From an archaeon (GTDB lineage Archaea; Iainarchaeota; Iainarchaeia; Iainarchaeales; CSSED10-239), in assembly GCA_035390665.1 (NCBI GenBank), contig DAOOUC010000016.1:1-13007 (forward strand): 13,007 nt of DNA. Direction: 5' to 3'. The notes under the pieces are model-generated. The model ran no database searches. It was not told where the DNA came from and saw nothing but the letters and a program-made list of their open reading frames with translations. Position 1 is the stretch's first letter. The number at the start of each line of letters is the position of its first letter. The position numbers and the translations under genes are program-made. Positions 3,434 to 13,007 of the stretch are shown in pieces.

Positions 3434-4591
3434 ATGAATATTAAAAAAAAAGCCCTTTCGCCAATAGTTGCAACAATTCTTCTAGTTGTTGTTTCTGTAA
3501 TTCTTGTTTCAATTATTCTGTCTTTTGGAAAAAGTTTTACAAATCAGGGACTAGATAAGACAAAAGACATAAAAGAATTATCTCAATCAGATGCAGAACA
3601 CTTTGTTTATCCTAAGACTTTTTCTGAAGGTGTAGTTCAATTTAATTATTCTCCCCCAAACAATAGTTTTGGAGAAGTTCAAATAACTAAATATAAAATA
3701 TTATATGATAATAATGAAACAGAAGAAATTGAATTAACTACTCCGTACACCTTAAGCACAGGAACAAATCTTTTAAATCTTGAAGATTTTTCTGATCAAA
3801 ATATACCAACAAAAAAATTTGCTCTAGTTCTAGAAACAGAAGAAAATGAATATATTACATTAAAAAACATTACCAATCCTGAACCATATGTTGAAGAATT
3901 ATCTACTGAAAAATTAATCACTTCATTTATTATTTCAGAAATTTCAGGAACAATTAATAATGATAATAATACAATTTCTTTATCAGTACCATATGGAACA
4001 AATGTAACTGCACTTACGCCAACAATAATAATTTCAGATGAAACAACCATAAGTCCAGAATCAGGAATTGCTCAAGATTTTACAAATCCCGTAATTTATA
4101 CAGTAACAGCAGAAGATCAAAGTACTAGAGTTTACACAGTTACAATAATTGTAGAAGAATTAGGTCTGCTTTATCTTTATAATGAAGGGACTGGAGAAGA
4201 TGATTGGCAAGATATGTCTGGGGGTAGTAGTACTAATACAAAAGAAACAGATCATCTAAAAATATATGGATCTGATATGGCTTGGGGTGGTTTTGTTACT
4301 GTTAATAAAATTGATTTGACAGATTATAATACTTTAAATATAGATTGGGAAGGAACAATTACATTATTTCCTGCTGTTGGTAATTATTTTGGATTAGGTA
4401 ATGCCCAAGACACAACAATAGAGATGGGGGAAGGTTATGATTATAATCAAATGTCATCTCAATTTAGTAGACAAATAAGTGTATTAGATATAAGCAATAA
4501 TAATGGTGAATTTTATATAAAAGTATTACAAGCATGGTATGATTTTGGAGGAACCGCAACTACAAAGATATATAAAATCTGGTTAGAATAA
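3434..4591 (+). CDS. Archaeal type IV pilin-like (class III signal peptide) surface protein with an Ig-like module and an uncharacterised C-terminal beta-rich domain
   Basis: The N-terminus MNIKKKA/LSPIVATILLVVVSVILVSIIL matches the archaeal prepilin (Pilin_N/DUF1628-type) signal: a basic stretch, small residue, LSPI(V/I)AT, then a hydrophobic helix. nt 3905-4153 encode the module shared with CDS 1-1019. GGGG/GGAA Shine-Dalgarno-like sequence at 3423-3428. ACATATATAAA box at 3375-3385. Confidence 0.8.
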   Translation: MNIKKKALSPIVATILLVVVSVILVSIILSFGKSFTNQGLDKTKDIKELSQSDAEHFVYPKTFSEGVVQFNYSPPNNSFGEVQITKYKILYDNNETEEIELTTPYTLSTGTNLLNLEDFSDQNIPTKKFALVLETEENEYITLKNITNPEPYVEELSTEKLITSFIISEISGTINNDNNTISLSVPYGTNVTALTPTIIISDETTISPESGIAQDFTNPVIYTVTAEDQSTRVYTVTIIVEELGLLYLYNEGTGEDDWQDMSGGSSTNTKETDHLKIYGSDMAWGGFVTVNKIDLTDYNTLNIDWEGTITLFPAVGNYFGLGNAQDTTIEMGEGYDYNQMSSQFSRQISVLDISNNNGEFYIKVLQAWYDFGGTATTKIYKIWLE

Positions 4592-6722: not shown

Positions 6723-6947
6723 ATGAAGGGCAAAAAAATGTTAACTACATATAATATAATTATTGAGAAAGACAAAGAGGGGTGGTATATTGGTGAGGTA
6801 TTAGAATTACCTGGTTGTTATTCTCAAGCAAAAAGTATGGATGAACTAGTTAAGAGAACAAAAGAAGCAATTAAATGTCATTTACTTGAATCTAAAATAG
6901 AAATCCCATTATCTAATTTTGTAGGAATACAGCAATTAAAGGTGTAA
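6723..6947 (+). CDS. hicB: HicB-family antitoxin (UPF0150-type, single domain)
   Basis: YNIIIEKDKEGWYIGEVLELPGCYSQAKSMDELVKRTKEAI is the classic HicB/UPF0150 N-terminal fold signature. Alternative start at ATG 6738. Sits directly upstream of hicA (6-nt gap). Confidence 0.8.
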   Translation: MKGKKMLTTYNIIIEKDKEGWYIGEVLELPGCYSQAKSMDELVKRTKEAIKCHLLESKIEIPLSNFVGIQQLKV

Positions 6948-6953
6948 ACCCTT

Positions 6954-7187
6954 TTGAAAGAATTACCTTTGTTAACAGGAAAGAAATTAGGGAAGGTAAT
7001 TGTTAAACTAGATTATAAGTATGATCACACTTGTGGAAGTCATATGACCTTTACTAATTTTAAAGAAAACAAGAAGATAACAATTCCAAATCATGGTTCA
7101 GAACCAATAAGACCAGGTCTTCTTCTAAAGATAATAAAGAAAGATCTAGGTATAACAAAAGAAGAATTTTTAGAATTGTTAAAATAG
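6954..7187 (+). CDS. hicA: HicA-family mRNA interferase toxin
   Basis: 77 aa. The pattern LTGKKLGKVIVKLDY...CGSHMTF...ITIPNHGSEPIRPGLLLKIIKKDLGITKEEF matches the HicA/YcfA dsRBD-like family, including the conserved GSH His. TTG start. Confidence 0.8.
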   Translation: MKELPLLTGKKLGKVIVKLDYKYDHTCGSHMTFTNFKENKKITIPNHGSEPIRPGLLLKIIKKDLGITKEEFLELLK

Positions 7188-7288: not shown

Positions 7289-7780
7289 TTAATTTAAAAT
7301 AACAATCCAAAGGTTAAGTATTGTTGCAAAGCATAACCATAGAAGATATGGCATAAGAAGATATGCGGACTTTTCGTGTAGTTCATAGAATTTAATAATT
7401 GTTATTGCAACTAAGCCTACAAGAATAAAAATACAAAACAATCCAAATATTGGTGATTGTAGTCCAAAGAAAAGATATGACCAAAGGACATTAAAAAATA
7501 ATTGTAATCCAAAAAGAGCTAATGCTGTTTTCTTTTTCTCAGGATCTTTTCTATATTTCTGTGGCTGTGACCAAACCATAAATAAAGAAATTCCCATTAA
7601 GATGTAAAGTATTGTCCAAGCTATTGGAAAAACTATTCCTGGTGGAGTAATTGGTGGTTTGGTAATGGTCTGATACCAAGACCCTGGACCTGTTATTGTT
7701 ACTAAAGATCCTAAAAAACCTGCTCCTAGGCAAAAAACCATTGATAAAATAAACTTTATATAATCTTTCATAAATATCAC
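7289..7780 (-). CDS. tspO: TspO/MBR (tryptophan-rich sensory protein / translocator protein) family membrane protein
   Basis: 163 aa, five hydrophobic helices. Motifs WYQTITKPPITPPGIVFPIAWTILYILMG, FFNVLWSYLFF and LLMPYLLWLCFATILN are typical of TspO. Start could be M1 (7780) or M4 (7771). Confidence 0.88.
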   Translation of the reverse strand: MIFMKDYIKFILSMVFCLGAGFLGSLVTITGPGSWYQTITKPPITPPGIVFPIAWTILYILMGISLFMVWSQPQKYRKDPEKKKTALALFGLQLFFNVLWSYLFFGLQSPIFGLFCIFILVGLVAITIIKFYELHEKSAYLLMPYLLWLCFATILNLWIVILN

Positions 7781-7807
7781 TAATATGTATTTCTTGTATC
7801 AAAAGCA

Positions 7808-7819
7808 ATTTAAATATAT
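7808..7819. promoter_or_regulatory. TATA-like element (TTTAAATATATA) in the tspO / ABC divergent intergenic region
   Basis: Ends 50 nt before ATG 7869 on the + strand. On the - strand it lies 28 nt from the tspO M1 codon. Near-palindromic A/T sequence that could serve either direction. Confidence 0.35.
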
Positions 7820-7868
7820 AGATTGTATATTATTTAGGCAAAATAATCTAATTTTTAAAGTTGATAAG

Positions 7869-8663
7869 ATGAATAAAGAAAACATAATAGAAGTAAATGA
7901 ACTTAATAAAAGTTATGGGAAACTACAAGTGCTTAAAGATGTAAATTTTTCTGTTAAGAAAAAAAGCATCTTTGCTTTTCTTGGGCCAAATGGTGCCGGA
8001 AAGTCAACAACTATAAAGATATTAACCACTATTCTTCAACCAGACACAGGAAAAGTGTTAATTAATGGAAATAATCCACTTAAAGATTCAGATAAAGTAA
8101 GAAAAGACTTTGGAATAGTTTTTCAAGATCCTTCAGTTGATGAAGAATTAACTGCTTATGAAAATCTAGATATGCACGGTATCTTTTATCGTGTTCCAAA
8201 AAACGAAAGAAAAAAAAGAATAGAAGAACTAATGAAGATTGTTGAACTATGGGATAGAAAAGACGAGTTAGTTAAGAACTTTTCAGGAGGAATGAAAAGA
8301 AGATTAGAGATTGCTCGAGGATTACTTCATTATCCAAAAGTATTGTTTCTTGATGAACCAACAGTTGGTTTAGATCCACAAACAAGAAATCACATTTGGG
8401 ATTATATAAAGAAAGTAAACAAAAGAGAAGGAACAACAATATTCTTTACGACACATTATATGGATGAAGCAGAAAAGTATGCAGATAGTATTGCTATTAT
8501 TGATCATGGAAAAATTATAGATATAGGAACAAGTAAGGAACTTATTAAAAAAACAAAAACAAAAACTTTAGAAGAAGCATTTATTAAAATTACAGGATAT
8601 AGTATAAGAGATGAAGAAGCAAGTACTCTAGATAGAATGAGAATGATGAGAAGAAGACATTAA
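7869..8663 (+). CDS. ABC transporter ATP-binding protein (DrrA/ABC-2 exporter type)
   Basis: Walker A GPNGAGKST, Q-loop FQDP, signature FSGGMKRR, Walker B LFLDEPTVGLD, H-loop TTHYMDEA. I prefer the start at ATG 7869 (MNKENIIEV). The 28 codons upstream in the ORF track run through the divergent promoter and have no homology-like content. Confidence 0.9.
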   Translation: MNKENIIEVNELNKSYGKLQVLKDVNFSVKKKSIFAFLGPNGAGKSTTIKILTTILQPDTGKVLINGNNPLKDSDKVRKDFGIVFQDPSVDEELTAYENLDMHGIFYRVPKNERKKRIEELMKIVELWDRKDELVKNFSGGMKRRLEIARGLLHYPKVLFLDEPTVGLDPQTRNHIWDYIKKVNKREGTTIFFTTHYMDEAEKYADSIAIIDHGKIIDIGTSKELIKKTKTKTLEEAFIKITGYSIRDEEASTLDRMRMMRRRH

Positions 8664-8678
8664 AAGGAAAGATAACAG

Positions 8679-9425
8679 ATGAACACAATTGGAATATTAT
8701 GGTTAAGACAAATTAAAAGACACTATAGATCAAAAGCAAGACTTATTGGTTCTTTTTCTATGCCTTTGTTATTTTTATTAGCATTTGGATTTGGATTTGG
8801 TTCAATTTATGCTCAAGCAGGACAAGGAGACTATTTTCAGTTTCTTGTTCCAGGCATAATATCTATGACAATTCTATTTACTTCTGTAATGTCCGGAATA
8901 GAGATTATTTGGGATAGACAATTTGGTTTCTTGAAGGAAACATTAGTAGCTCCAGTATCTCGTTTAGAAATAATGATTGGAAGAACTCTTGGTGGAGCAA
9001 CCGTTGCCTTTGCACAAGGTTTTTTGTTTTTAATATTGTCTTTGTTTTTTGGATTTCGCATTATTTCTTGGACAATGTTGCCAATTGCTCTCCTCTTTAT
9101 GCTTTTAATAGCAATCTTTTTTGCAGCTTTAGGCACAGCCATTGCCTCTCTTCTAGACGATATGCAAGGTTTTCAATTGATAATGAATTTTCTAATAATG
9201 CCAATTTTCTTTTTATCAGGTGCAATGTTTCCAATTGATACTGCTCCAAAAGCAATACAAATTATTTCTAAGTTTAATCCATTAAGTTATGGAGTAAGTG
9301 GTATTAGAAATTCTTTATTAGGGGTTTCTCAAGGCAACATTTGGTTTAATCTTATAATATTGTTTATTCTAGCAATAGTGATGCTTGTCATTGGATCTAA
9401 GCTATTTTCAAAAATGCAGGTATAG
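8679..9425 (+). CDS. ABC-2 type transporter permease
   Basis: 248 aa, ~6 TM segments. The N-terminal LWLRQIKRHYRSK and the overall ABC-2 membrane pattern fit this family. 15 nt downstream of the ATPase gene. Confidence 0.85.
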   Translation: MNTIGILWLRQIKRHYRSKARLIGSFSMPLLFLLAFGFGFGSIYAQAGQGDYFQFLVPGIISMTILFTSVMSGIEIIWDRQFGFLKETLVAPVSRLEIMIGRTLGGATVAFAQGFLFLILSLFFGFRIISWTMLPIALLFMLLIAIFFAALGTAIASLLDDMQGFQLIMNFLIMPIFFLSGAMFPIDTAPKAIQIISKFNPLSYGVSGIRNSLLGVSQGNIWFNLIILFILAIVMLVIGSKLFSKMQV

Positions 9426-9892: not shown

Positions 9893-10120
9893 ATGGATAA
9901 AGAAAAAAATGAAAACCCAACTGTTGCTTTAGCAGGAACTATTTGTGCTTTTGCAGTAGGGATTGCAGCTTTAATTGTAATCTTTGCAAAAAATTATGCT
10001 TGGATAATTATATTTACAACATTAACTTTGTGTTTCTTTGGAATAGCACTAGCAAAGAAAGATTGTTCTTGTGGTCCAAATTGTGAATGTAATACAAAAC
10101 CAAAAGATAAAAAAAAATGA
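9893..10120 (+). CDS. Small two-TM membrane protein with a cysteine-rich basic tail (CxCxxxCxC)
   Basis: Two hydrophobic helices (VALAGTICAFAVGIAALIVIFA, YAWIIIFTTLTLCFFGIALA), then KKDCSCGPNCECNTKPKDKKK (Cys motif nt 10064-10090). GGAG Shine-Dalgarno at 9882-9885. ACATATATAAA box at 9834-9844. Confidence 0.65.
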   Translation: MDKEKNENPTVALAGTICAFAVGIAALIVIFAKNYAWIIIFTTLTLCFFGIALAKKDCSCGPNCECNTKPKDKKK

Positions 10121-10130
10121 TGCTTTAACT

Positions 10131-10529
10131 ATGCCAACATTAAGACCAGCAAGAAGATTATCTCCTAAAGTCCTTGAAGATATAAAAAAAAGGAGAATAG
10201 AGAAATCAAAACCAAAAGTGCCCATTGATTATCAAACAAAGGTCTTAAAAGTTGGTGCAGAAATAAAAGCACTTAAGATTATAGCCGAATATGATCCAAT
10301 GTCTATGAAAGGATTAACAGTTGATACATTAAAACAAATAGAAACAAACATTTTAGATTTAACAAGAAAAATAACAGAAGAAATAGAAATATTAAAGAAA
10401 GCAAAATTAGAAAGAAGTAATCTTGCAGGCTTAAATATAGAGATAACTAATTTTGAAAGGCAGAAAAAAGAATCAGAAAAGATTATTGCTATTCTTGAAT
10501 CCAAGATTAAAGAAAAAACAAGACAATAA
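10131..10529 (+). CDS. Hypothetical coiled-coil protein (132 aa from ATG 10131)
   Basis: Basic N-terminus (MPTLRPARRLSPK...KRRIEKSKPK) followed by heptad-rich K/E/I/L sequence. The ORF-track start at 10071 (GTG) overlaps the upstream gene by 50 nt, so ATG 10131 is preferred. A T7 run follows directly after the stop. Confidence 0.6.
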   Translation: MPTLRPARRLSPKVLEDIKKRRIEKSKPKVPIDYQTKVLKVGAEIKALKIIAEYDPMSMKGLTVDTLKQIETNILDLTRKITEEIEILKKAKLERSNLAGLNIEITNFERQKKESEKIIAILESKIKEKTRQ

Positions 10530-10546: not shown

Positions 10547-10557
10547 ACATATATAAA
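10547..10557 (+). promoter_or_regulatory. Archaeal TATA-box promoter element (ACATATATAAA), copy 3
   Basis: Exact 11-mer. Its last base lies 23 nt before ATG 10580, which would give a leaderless or near-leaderless mRNA. Confidence 0.5.
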
Positions 10558-10579: not shown

Positions 10580-11704
10580 ATGAATAAAGGTTCTAAAATT
10601 TTTGTAATTGTATTATTAGCAATAATACTTATCTCTATTGTTTATATATTTAATAATAAAATTAATGATTTAGAAGATAAATATAATATTCTAAATAATC
10701 GATATATAAAACTAAATCAAGAACATGAACAACTAATTGAAGAAAAGCAAGAATTAGAAGATCAGTTTAATGATCTTACAGCTGATTTTAAAGACTTAAC
10801 AGAAAATTACAATTCTAAGGTCTTAGAAAACAAAGAGAAAGATCAAGAAATTAATTCTTTAACAAACAACTATAATAATGTTCTAGAAAACTATCAAACT
10901 CTTAATAACGAAGTAGGAATATTTAAAACAAGAATAGAAGAATCCATGGATTGGTTTAAGAATAATTCTACTCTTGATAATCTTTCAAATCAAAGAACTA
11001 TAAAAAATAATCTTAAAAAATGTGTAACTTGCGAAGAAGAATTATGTTATATAAAAACAGCCTGTATTTATGTTATTAATCAAGAAGAACTATATCTAAA
11101 ATATGCCTTAGATTCTCAAACTTCTGGACAAGAAGACAAATTACAAACACTTGAGCAATTTCTTTTACAAAAAAAAGGAGACTGTGAGGATTTTTCTTTA
11201 TTCTTTGCTGCAGAGTTAAGATATTTGATTGAGTATGTTAATTCTCAAGAAAAAACACCAATCATTGAAGCAATTGTAGAATCAGATACTTCAAGAAGTT
11301 ATGAAATTGTTGGTAGATGGTATTACCCAGAAGGTATAGAAAAAAAAATAATTTCTAAAGAATATAGTTATCCTTATGTTGCTTGTGGTAACATTTTTGA
11401 TCCTAATACTCAAGAGATTGGAGGACATTGTTTGATAATGCTTTCAGAAGAAGAAATAAATGAAAGTCAAGATATTGAGGACTTAGACAACATAGAATTA
11501 CTAGAACCACAAAATGGATTATATATTGGAAAAGCTAAAAACAATGGAATATTTGAAACAAAAAATTCAGAAAATCAAGTTGGGCAAATAATTACAAGTG
11601 CTGACTATTATATGCACAATTCTATTCTTTACAGCAACAATACAGAAAGTCATTGGTATAGTTATGGTTATTATTACAATAAGATTATAGAATTAGAACA
11701 ATAA
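10580..11704 (+). CDS. N-terminally membrane-anchored coiled-coil protein with a C-terminal transglutaminase-like (papain-fold) Cys-His-acid core
   Basis: Signal anchor IFVIVLLAIILISIVYIF. Residues ~27-120 are coiled-coil-like with reiterated NYN/LEN motifs. GDCEDFSLFFAAELR (C202, nt 11183-11185), GGHCLIML (H283, nt 11426-11428) and LLEPQNG (E309, nt 11504-11506) match the order and spacing of the transglutaminase-core triad. ACATATATAAA box ends 23 nt before the ATG. Confidence 0.7.
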   Translation: MNKGSKIFVIVLLAIILISIVYIFNNKINDLEDKYNILNNRYIKLNQEHEQLIEEKQELEDQFNDLTADFKDLTENYNSKVLENKEKDQEINSLTNNYNNVLENYQTLNNEVGIFKTRIEESMDWFKNNSTLDNLSNQRTIKNNLKKCVTCEEELCYIKTACIYVINQEELYLKYALDSQTSGQEDKLQTLEQFLLQKKGDCEDFSLFFAAELRYLIEYVNSQEKTPIIEAIVESDTSRSYEIVGRWYYPEGIEKKIISKEYSYPYVACGNIFDPNTQEIGGHCLIMLSEEEINESQDIEDLDNIELLEPQNGLYIGKAKNNGIFETKNSENQVGQIITSADYYMHNSILYSNNTESHWYSYGYYYNKIIELEQ

Positions 11705-11830: not shown

Positions 11831-12493
11831 CTATTTTAATTTCTTTTCTAATTGATTATAGTATTCTAAACTTAATTTCCTTATGTCTTTTAGTATTGGG
11901 ATAATAATTTTTCTATCCTCTAAAAGATTTAATCTTTCTTCAAACCAAGTTATCCAAACATCTTTTCCGGATTTTTCTACTTGGTATTTGATTTCATCTA
12001 AGATAACATTCCAGTTAGGGTTTGTTCTAGCAATTGATTGACAATCATCAATATCTCCATCTCTGTCTGTGATGCTTTTGAAAACTAAGATGTCTTCTAA
12101 GGAACAAGCAAATAGTTTAATATTTTTGTATTCCTTTATTAGTTTTGCTCTTTTAATCATGTTTTCACTAAGGAAAAGATTATTACACACAATCTTATTA
12201 AAAATATCAAATCTGTAATTGTCTTTGATTAGTATATTTTCTAAATTTAATTTATGGTATTCTCTTGTTGGTTTTTCAAGTGTGAAATCATTTTTCTTGA
12301 GTGTATTGATCAATGATTCATATTCTTCTTTAGAGTTAACAATTAAGTCTATGTCTTTTGTTCCCGGTTTTGCATTATGATACAGTAGTACTGCTCCGCC
12401 TATCAGGTAGACATTTATCTTATTTCTAATATTTTTGTCAATTTCATCGAATGCTTCAGATATTTGAGTAAAATCAGTTATATATTTTTCCAT
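11831..12493 (-). CDS. Nucleotidyltransferase-fold protein (minimal NTase; AbiEii/DUF6036-like)
   Basis: LIGGAVLLYHNAKPGTKDIDLIV (nt 12347-12400) is the G-G/S...D-x-D NTase active-site strand-helix motif. A third acidic residue lies in RFDIF. The downstream SLEDILVFKSITDRDGDIDDCQSI resembles the (S.EDLI..K..A.R.KD..D) helix seen in this NTase group. Confidence 0.7.
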   Translation of the reverse strand: MEKYITDFTQISEAFDEIDKNIRNKINVYLIGGAVLLYHNAKPGTKDIDLIVNSKEEYESLINTLKKNDFTLEKPTREYHKLNLENILIKDNYRFDIFNKIVCNNLFLSENMIKRAKLIKEYKNIKLFACSLEDILVFKSITDRDGDIDDCQSIARTNPNWNVILDEIKYQVEKSGKDVWITWFEERLNLLEDRKIIIPILKDIRKLSLEYYNQLEKKLK

Positions 12494-12500
12494 TTTTTAA

Positions 12501-13007
12501 TCACATCTTTATATCATATACTTTTGCTTTTTCTTTTATTTCTTTTAGTGGAGGATATCTGTCTATTTTTTCTCCGGAAAATATTTTATTAAGGTTATCT
12601 AGTATTTCGTGCTTAATGTCTTTAAACTCGTCTTTGTATTTATAATAGAATAAAGCAAGATACATTCTGTCTCTAAATTCTTTTGTTTTTTCTACAATTG
12701 CTAAGGTGTGTAGTAGTATTTCTTGTTTAGTTAATTTCTTTTTAGGAAGGTAATAGAAGTTTTCAAGAGTATAGATAAGTAAATTATAGTCTTTAAACGC
12801 AGAAAAGGAAGTTAATGTTGCATCTATATTTTGTTTTATTGAAAACACAATTTCTTTTTCGTTTTTGTAGTAAATTGTTGAACCAACAGGCACTCTATAA
12901 TCATAGTTTCCTTGAAAACTTTTATATTCTTTTAAAAAATCAATTAAATCTGGCCAAACACTATAATTAACTATATATTCTTTATTTTCTTTAATAAATA
13001 TAGATCT
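12501..13007 (-). CDS. Hypothetical protein, 5'-truncated at the window edge; upstream partner of the NTase (possible AbiEi-like antitoxin/regulator)
   Basis: The frame is open to nt 13007 (...RSIFIKENKEYIVNYSVWPDLIDFLKEYKSFQGNYDYR precedes the GTG at 12893), so the gene begins outside the window. It stops 7 nt before the NTase ATG. I recognise no motif in the visible part. Confidence 0.6.
   Translation of the reverse strand, partial: RSIFIKENKEYIVNYSVWPDLIDFLKEYKSFQGNYDYRVPVGSTIYYKNEKEIVFSIKQNIDATLTSFSAFKDYNLLIYTLENFYYLPKKKLTKQEILLHTLAIVEKTKEFRDRMYLALFYYKYKDEFKDIKHEILDNLNKIFSGEKIDRYPPLKEIKEKAKVYDIKM

Follow-up and report, generated by a model that had tools for sequence, protein, structure and literature searches.

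The 13,007-nucleotide stretch of contig DAOOUC010000016.1 (GenBank assembly GCA_035390665.1), from an archaeon of the Iainarchaeales and hereafter called the window, is AT-rich (24-31% G+C) and contains on its forward strand, at 10580..11704, a gene for a 374-amino-acid protein. We think it probable that this protein is a membrane-anchored, stalked, extracytoplasmic cysteine endopeptidase, probably Ca2+-dependent, that is distantly related to LapG, a bacterial protease that cuts adhesins, and belongs to the transglutaminase-like/papain-like superfamily as a divergent member. Its transmembrane helix would continue into a rigid helical, probably coiled-coil stalk, and a disulfide-stabilised head of ~250 residues would be displayed outside the cell. 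Within the head, C202, at the N-terminus of a helix, would act as the nucleophile, H283 would activate C202, and E309 would orient H283. D201, E203 and D204, together with D178 and D186, would bind Ca2+ beside the active site, as in LapG. The enzyme would most likely cut a surface or envelope protein, either the archaeon's own or that of a host, at specific sites. An earlier note on this DNA had proposed an anchored stalk carrying a transglutaminase-like Cys-His-Glu core. Our results support that interpretation and refine it: the LapG/BTLCP proteases are the nearest relatives, and a calcium-site motif and a disulfide network have been added.

The open reading frame (ORF) is a real gene, far beyond what chance would give, as is evident from its homologues and from an identical deposited protein, HOW29872.1, which is recorded as 'hypothetical protein [archaeon]'. 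In a mechanical ORF list it has an ATG start and 374 codons plus a stop. When the translation was checked, the motifs quoted in the earlier note were all in place: CVTCEEELCYIKTAC starts at residue 148 (C148, C151, C156 and C162), GDCEDFSLFFAAELR at 200 (C202), GGHCLIML at 281 (H283 and C284) and LLEPQNG at 307 (E309). The gene and the parts of its predicted catalytic core are as follows.

10580..11704, forward strand: complete gene for the stalked transglutaminase-like/BTLCP-related protein, identical to HOW29872.1.

11177..11191, forward strand: G200-D201-C202-E203-D204, the predicted nucleophile C202 and its flanking acids (from conservation, the model and the literature).

11255..11401, forward strand: beta-rich insert, residues 226-274, ending in the invariant C269-G270 and absent from enzymes of LapG size.

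11420..11431, forward strand: G281-G282-H283-C284, with the predicted general base H283 (from conservation, hairpin register and Cys parity).

11504..11512, forward strand: E309-P310-Q311, the predicted third residue of the triad, resembling a D-P-T turn (from conservation and strand 304-309).

11516..11701, forward strand: C-terminal part of the head, made up of beta-strands and a last helix (residues 313-374), in which I338, D342, W359 and Y362 are conserved (from the alignment and the model).

Conservation of the predicted active site is close to complete. Counts were made over 155 diverse, full-length members of the family, mostly representatives at 50% identity. G200, C202, C269, H283, C284 and E309 are invariant (155/155), so that all three residues that the earlier note had proposed as catalytic are present in every member. 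Near-invariant are D201 and D204 (153 each), G282 and G313 (152 each), Q311 (151), E203 (146) and P310 (145). H283 is the sole conserved His in the family, and it is therefore the predicted general base. In the AlphaFold model of the head (predicted local distance difference test, pLDDT, 93.2; predicted template modelling score, pTM, 0.92) and in that of the full-length protein, a helix of 21 residues (202-222) starts with C202. Strand 279-289 contains H283, and the strand after it, 304-309, ends in E309. A Cys on a helix followed by a His and an acid on strands is the canonical papain/transglutaminase-like arrangement (PMC10318531), and this order had been anticipated from the motifs. Two features had been called atypical: the separation of C202 and H283, which is indeed 81 residues, and the use of Glu in place of Asp. 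The second is not very atypical, since the superfamily triad is described as 'usually Cys-His-Asp/Glu' and that of NAT3 is Cys-His-Glu (PMC4866520).

The same counts bear on whether the protein is an enzyme at all. It could instead be a non-enzymatic scaffold of the FtsB/DivIC type, a transmembrane segment and coiled coil that serves division or envelope spacing, with the head as a binding module that retains ancestral residues. One homologue, P0037, is labelled 'cell division protein FtsB' by JGI, whereas all other source names are 'hypothetical protein'. Pfam and NCBIfam find in the stalk region coiled-coil noise only, including SMC- and FtsL-like matches, and the gene lacks an operon context, as a scaffold might. 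However, the FtsB label derives from the transmembrane segment and coiled coil only. Moreover, C202, H283 and E309 are invariant, and the calcium-type acids nearly so, in a head whose mean column identity is 45% (28% in the stalk). Invariance against such a background is the pattern of an active site and not that of a scaffold, and we consider a scaffold improbable.

Several lines of evidence point to the BTLCP/LapG proteases as the closest known relatives of the head. The part of the protein that carries the sequence similarity is the following.

11066..11266, forward strand: lobe homologous to the N-terminal lobe of BTLCP/LapG, residues 163-229, including Y175, D178, D186 and the catalytic helix (from hhalign and profile searches).

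A profile of 20 family sequences, searched against all PDB sequences, found Legionella LapG (4fgo) alone (E 0.0039). A profile of 40 sequences found the same protein at E 1.3e-5 and Pseudomonas LapG (4u65_E) at E 0.11, and no other family. Similarly, hhalign aligned the family profile with a 200-amino-acid protein from an Allohahella bacterial locus, a bona fide Peptidase_C93 member (Pfam E 1.3e-15), at a probability of 97.5% and E 6e-12, with 38% identity over 63 columns. These columns cover residues 163-229, that is, Y175-x-x-D178, D186, the GDCEDF motif and the catalytic helix. Foldseek comparison of the head with the PDB gave no match below E 1e-3. With one exception, the matches with a probability of at least 0.5 were 4fgq_A (E 0.02, probability 0.96), 4u65_E, 3isr, TglA (9crn) and four axonemal chains, which are probably DRC7, a protein treated as transglutaminase-like (PMC10318531). 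The informative matches are all transglutaminase-like, as the earlier note would have it, and the profiles narrow the choice to LapG/BTLCP. The structural likeness to 3ISR, a putative cysteine protease of Cytophaga hutchinsonii, and to TglA of Streptococcus pyogenes (9CRN), both transglutaminase-like thiol enzymes, extends over 174-187 columns (Foldseek probability 0.94 and 0.63), although with E values of 0.02-0.2, template modelling scores (TM-scores) of about 0.27-0.29, 7-11% identity and other domain contexts. Membership of the transglutaminase-like superfamily, which Pfam places in clan Peptidase_CA, is thus supported by a Cys at the start of a helix, a His and then an acid on strands, and profile similarity. 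The superfamily is reportedly the subject of work by Makarova, Aravind and Koonin in 1999.

The LapG-type proteases also provide a rationale for the acidic residues around C202. Members of the BTLCP/LapG family cleave at a [T/A/P]AAG site in a calcium-dependent manner. The motif G-D-C-E-D-F/Y of BTLCP/Peptidase C93 (PF06035; LapG structures 4FGO/4FGQ and 4U65; DvhG of Desulfovibrio vulgaris) is identical in the archaeal family, including the D and E that are essential in DvhG. Activity of DvhG and LapG needs a C-H-D triad and an adjacent calcium site, and a DvhG double mutant (D316A/E318A) in the residues that flank the nucleophile C317 is inactive (PMC13090378). In LapG, D139, two residues past the Cys, binds calcium (PMC4866520). 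Given the near-invariant D-C-E-D string that is shared with DvhG and LapG, we predict that the archaeal protein is a calcium-dependent thiol enzyme.

The likeness extends to location and architecture. LapG and DvhG are extracytoplasmic, and DvhG is anchored by an N-terminal transmembrane helix that is followed by a linker of ~180 residues ahead of the catalytic domain (PMC13090378), which is a precedent for an anchored BTLCP-type protease. However, the DvhG linker is disordered, whereas the archaeal protein has a structured helical stalk. The third triad residue is Asp in BTLCP and Glu in the archaeal family. There are ~46 more residues between Cys and His in the archaeal family, and the 81-residue spacing is much longer than that of the Allohahella BTLCP. 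The BTLCP domain is compact (~160-200 residues), whereas the archaeal head has ~250-263 residues and includes a Cys-rich N-terminal subdomain and a C-terminal extension of ~60 residues. BTLCP enzymes are bacterial, in contrast to the archaeal (DPANN) family, and no association with a LapD/DvhD-type receptor, a type I secretion system or a giant adhesin was found across 66 loci or among the neighbours in the window. Thus, despite its G-D-C-E-D motif, the family is not part of BTLCP/Peptidase C93: its gathering score, Glu triad, insert, C-terminal lobe and genomic context all place it outside.

The chemistry is probably endoproteolysis of a surface protein, given that all significant relatives are endoproteases that cut at specific sites. 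A true transglutaminase with the same fold and location, one that cross-links Gln and Lys of surface-layer (S-layer), pilus or host surface proteins, is an unlikely alternative that has some appeal. Tethered at a set height above the membrane, such an enzyme could knit an envelope layer together, and the superfamily contains cross-linking enzymes with the same triad (PMC4866520, PMC10318531). Transglut_core (PF01841) and DUF553 (PF04473) share the order of Cys-helix, His-strand and acid-strand, and the E-P-Q of the archaeal family is like their D-P-T turn. Transglut_core matches the protein at E 0.004 (17.8 bits, with a gathering score of 23) over residues 174-215, only 42 residues, and the Cys-His spacing of the protein is much longer than in these two families. 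Among 20 close members, sub-threshold matches were obtained to Transglut_core in 19 (best E 9.2e-5) and to DUF553 in five, with the Cys motif at their centre, and to Peptidase_C93 in one (E 0.065); in a second, more divergent set there were fewer matches overall, with a sub-threshold Peptidase_C93 match in one of 40 (E 0.025). However, the name Transglut_core has little weight, as the Pfam family consists mostly of uncharacterised proteins and proteases. The significant profile matches are only to BTLCP/LapG proteases, of which the D-C-E-D calcium motif is a signature.

A further possibility, which we rate somewhat lower than cross-linking, is an envelope amidase or isopeptidase (a pseudomurein endoisopeptidase, an NlpC/P60 enzyme, a PNGase-like glycoamidase or a deamidase) that acts on non-backbone amides of the cell's own wall or that of its host. 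The superfamily includes amidases and PNGase (PMC4866520, PMC10318531), and the pseudomurein endoisopeptidases PeiW and PeiP (Peptidase C71), the comparators chosen in the earlier note, are of the same broad fold class and act on archaeal envelopes. A model of PeiP (Q77WJ4) does turn up in the Foldseek search of viral folds, yet that match is marginal (E 0.55, probability 0.20, TM-score 0.2). No sequence-level similarity to PeiW or PeiP was found, and the Pfam scan detected no pseudomurein-binding or other wall-binding repeats in the protein. These enzymes are more distant and are not the appropriate comparison; sequence homology favours BTLCP, and BTLCP/LapG is the closest known group.

The cysteines of the head indicate that it is stabilised by disulfides. 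The relevant subdomain is given here.

10964..11089, forward strand: Cys-rich N-terminal subdomain of the head, residues 129-170, with C148, C151, C156 and C162 on a beta-hairpin and helix.

The head has exactly seven Cys in 135 of the 155 members. C202, C269 and C284 are found in all, C148 and C162 in 154 each, and C156 in 147. As their seventh Cys, 25 sequences, among them the protein from the window, have C151, and 121 have one in the place of V220 (C220); no sequence has both. Occurrence of C151 or C220 requires C156, with one exception, a sequence that has C220 without C156. Seven members have none of C156, C151 and C220, and all of these keep C148 and C162. Mutual exclusivity of C151 and C220, together with their dependence on C156, is the signature of a disulfide partner that has been relocated. 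From these patterns we infer the disulfides C148-C162, C151 (or C220)-C156 and C269-C284, a pairing in which C202 would be the single free thiol. In the AlphaFold model, C269 is opposite C284 in the register of the hairpin formed by strands 264-274 and 279-289. The four-Cys cluster that the earlier note had pointed out is indeed present in this protein, but is specific to a subfamily: the wider family has a Cys at the V220 position in place of C151. The cluster appears to be part of the disulfide network. A Cys4 zinc site made of C148, C151, C156 and C162 was considered and rejected, since C148 and C162 persist in members that have lost C156 along with its partner.

The region N-terminal to the head consists of a membrane anchor and a stalk.

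10598..10651, forward strand: N-terminal transmembrane anchor, I7-F24 (from hydrophobicity, flanking charges and AlphaFold).

10652..10963, forward strand: helical, coiled-coil-like stalk, residues 25-128 (from heptad periodicity and AlphaFold).

The earlier note's description of a single N-terminal anchor and a heptad-like stalk holds for the protein and for its family. I7-F24, a stretch of 18-19 residues, is the sole hydrophobic segment of the protein, and an N-terminal hydrophobic segment is found in 149 of the 155 members. The segment that follows it (89-104 residues) is rich in N, E, L, K, D and Q and almost without Pro or Gly. Over 89 residues of it, hydrophobicity recurs about every 3.5 residues with a power 5.1 standard deviations above that of shuffled sequences, and Pro and Gly together make up 1%. 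Over the 149 members, the median z-score of the periodicity is 3.1 (z>2 in 72%) and median Pro+Gly is 1.5%. The full-length AlphaFold model (pLDDT 90.6) has residues 3-128 as a single unbroken helix from the transmembrane segment into the head, with a pLDDT of about 90 in the stalk. Linker length in the family is 46-128 residues (median 84, interquartile range 75-91). The stalk is thus conserved in kind and in rough length and not in sequence, as expected for a spacer. At 0.15 nm per residue, a fully helical stalk of ~100 residues would measure roughly 15 nm, and its coiled coil might also allow oligomerisation.

We propose that the protein is a type II (N-in/C-out) membrane protein with its head outside the cell, as the earlier note had supposed, and both the charge bias around the anchor and the covariation of the cysteines point this way. 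The N-terminal flank of the hydrophobic segment has a mean net charge of +1.9 and the following 15 residues one of -0.3; the positive-inside rule for this orientation is obeyed by 80% of members. The three predicted disulfides, which are conserved, also argue for an extracytoplasmic head. We give very little credence to the opposite arrangement (N-out/C-in), with a cytoplasmic head; it conflicts with the charge bias and with the disulfides that are implied by Cys parity and covariation. The same low standing goes to the idea that the N-terminal segment is a signal peptide whose removal sets free a soluble, secreted enzyme, even though LapG itself is soluble and periplasmic and has a cleaved signal peptide (PMC13090378). 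No A-x-A type (small-x-small) cleavage site was seen after I7-F24, the hydrophobic stretch of 18-19 residues is continuous with the stalk helix in the model, and there would be little point in conserving a rigid stalk that is cut off at its base. Lastly, an archaeal class III (prepilin-like) signal, which had been prompted by a weak Flp1_like match, was rejected. The Gly is not conserved in homologues, and with K-G-S-K at its N-terminus the protein departs from the cleavage pattern [KR][GA]-hydrophobic.

Several observations weigh against our favoured reading of an anchored, calcium-dependent LapG-like endopeptidase. First, no member that was scanned reached the Pfam gathering score for Transglut_core, DUF553 or Peptidase_C93, and the protein from the window has no Peptidase_C93 match of any kind. 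Second, when the C-terminal lobe alone, with the His and Glu strands, was compared with two BTLCP sequences by hhalign, the probability was below 1%. The equivalence of H283 and E309 to the corresponding residues of BTLCP is therefore drawn from order, invariance and strand register only. Third, the geometry of the Cys-His-Glu triad is deduced from strand register in the model: an antiparallel, end-to-end pairing of strands 279-289 and 304-309 would place H283 opposite residues 309-310. D342, conserved in 150 of the 155 members, could be an alternative acidic partner for the triad. Fourth, no neighbouring gene is conserved; by ORF calling and all-against-all BLASTP clustering, the commonest neighbour family occurs in five of 66 loci. 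Lastly, the superfamily includes proteases, transglutaminases, amidases and acyltransferases, and which chemistry applies cannot be read from sequence.

The family is unnamed, has no Pfam or NCBIfam model, and is conserved across DPANN archaea. Scans of the protein with Pfam and NCBIfam gave no match above the curated cut-offs, and no transglutaminase or peptidase Pfam domain is precomputed for any of the homologues found. Close homologues from a word-indexed search fall into 21 clusters (E 1e-234 to 1e-30). An exhaustive HMMER scan with a profile of the head domain, over 1.84 billion representatives and with the family clustered at 50% identity, yielded at least 335 proteins with E<=1e-3; of these, 277 had E<=1e-10 and 157 had E<=1e-30. 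Among the matches listed, nearly all are 340-420 residues long and share a plan of an N-terminal transmembrane helix, a stalk and a conserved head of ~260 residues at the C-terminus. The members with a named source are all from DPANN lineages: Woesearchaeota, Nanoarchaeota/Nanoarchaeia, Aenigmarchaeota, Diapherotrites/Iainarchaeum, ainarchaeum and Micrarchaeota. In a pattern-seeded scan that took one genome for each GTDB species, 62 archaeal loci were found, with the same range of names, and two bacterial loci with similarity around the Cys motif only.

Two further observations concern the limits of the family. Five of the records that carry a member (L008, L023, L034, L043 and L060; 37-56% G+C) are titled 'uncultured Methanosarcinales archaeon'. 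Either these labels are wrong or the family extends past DPANN. In addition, an Omnitrophota bacterium (L067, 4788-5387, forward strand) encodes a secreted protein of 199 residues that matches DUF553, Peptidase_C93 and Transglut_core about equally and has an RGDCEDF motif and a His motif, AHTLC. This protein may be an intermediate between BTLCP and the archaeal type of DUF553.

Our analysis extends the LapG/BTLCP lineage, hitherto treated as bacterial, into archaea with a new architecture, and it offers a testable catalytic hypothesis made up of C202, H283, E309, a LapG-type calcium site and three disulfides. To our knowledge, DPANN archaea live attached to other cells and almost none of their surface enzymes have been characterised. 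If the substrate is an adhesin or a host envelope protein, then the enzyme would be a handle on the attachment and detachment of symbionts; otherwise, it would be a well-defined new peptidase family for MEROPS and Pfam. Neither unexpected chemistry nor an unexpected system logic has been demonstrated, and the family is not a categorically new system. We speculate, with considerable doubt, that the family is a DPANN-wide functional analogue of the Lap protease. Such an enzyme would be gated by calcium and would act where the S-layer or the contact between symbiont and host lies, ~12-16 nm from the membrane. It would clip the cell's own adhesins or host surface proteins, thereby controlling attachment, detachment or cytoplasmic bridging. 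It would do so without a cyclic di-GMP receptor, and the length of the stalk would be a molecular ruler that sets which layer is cut. A link of the family to symbiosis is speculation, since its basis is only the DPANN-restricted distribution.

Genes beside individual homologues have some features that are suggestive for a thiol protease, yet they are lineage-specific. In Ca. ainarchaeum (L001, 5483-5860 and 4743-5363), the homologue P0012 divergently adjoins a gene for a 125-residue protein with DUF333 and Kazal protease-inhibitor domains, and one for an iron superoxide dismutase. In another metagenome-assembled genome (L003, 5029-5934), the homologue P0009 directly follows genes for glutaredoxin and peroxiredoxin. 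The inhibitor-like (Kazal/DUF333) genes and the redox genes were considered as conserved partners and rejected, as each occurs in a single lineage and neither generalises over the 66 loci.

In the window itself, one sequence upstream of the gene resembles a promoter element.

10550..10557, forward strand: possible archaeal TATA box, tatataaa, ~27 nt upstream of the ATG, read from the sequence.

This element could be the TATA box of a leaderless mRNA; the evidence is weak because the background G+C is only 24%. The neighbours in the window (an ABC-2 transporter, three small unannotated ORFs and a convergent DUF6036 nucleotidyltransferase) are unrelated to the stalked protein. Upstream, an ABC ATPase and ABC-2 permease pair (7785-9425, forward strand) is an ordinary transporter context and is adjoined by a divergent TspO/MBR gene (7289-7780, reverse strand). 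Closer to the gene are two ORFs on the forward strand without a Pfam match. One (9893-10120) encodes a 75-residue membrane protein with a Cys-rich C-terminal tail, CSCGPNCECN, and the other (10071-10529) overlaps the 3' end of the first, has a GTG start and encodes a basic, coiled-coil-like product of 152 residues. In the analysis of the 66 loci, neither recurs beside homologues of the stalked protein.

Other genes in the window are of more general interest. Two on the forward strand encode candidate surface proteins (3434-4591 and 108-1019), one with an archaeal type IV pilin N-terminus and DUF5018 and the other with Chitobiase-C/Fn3-associated repeats. They are possible envelope components, and nothing ties either of them to the protease. 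Downstream of the stalked-protein gene and convergent with it is a gene for a DUF6036/DUF2204 nucleotidyltransferase (11831-12493, reverse strand); ahead of it lies a small ORF that weakly matches HVO_2833_C (12501-12893, reverse strand). This pair may be similar to the nucleotidyltransferase type of toxin-antitoxin system. Lastly, adjacent forward-strand genes for a HicB-like antitoxin (6723-6947, 74 residues) and a HicA toxin (6954-7187, 77 residues) make up a complete type II pair in what is a small, DPANN-type genome.

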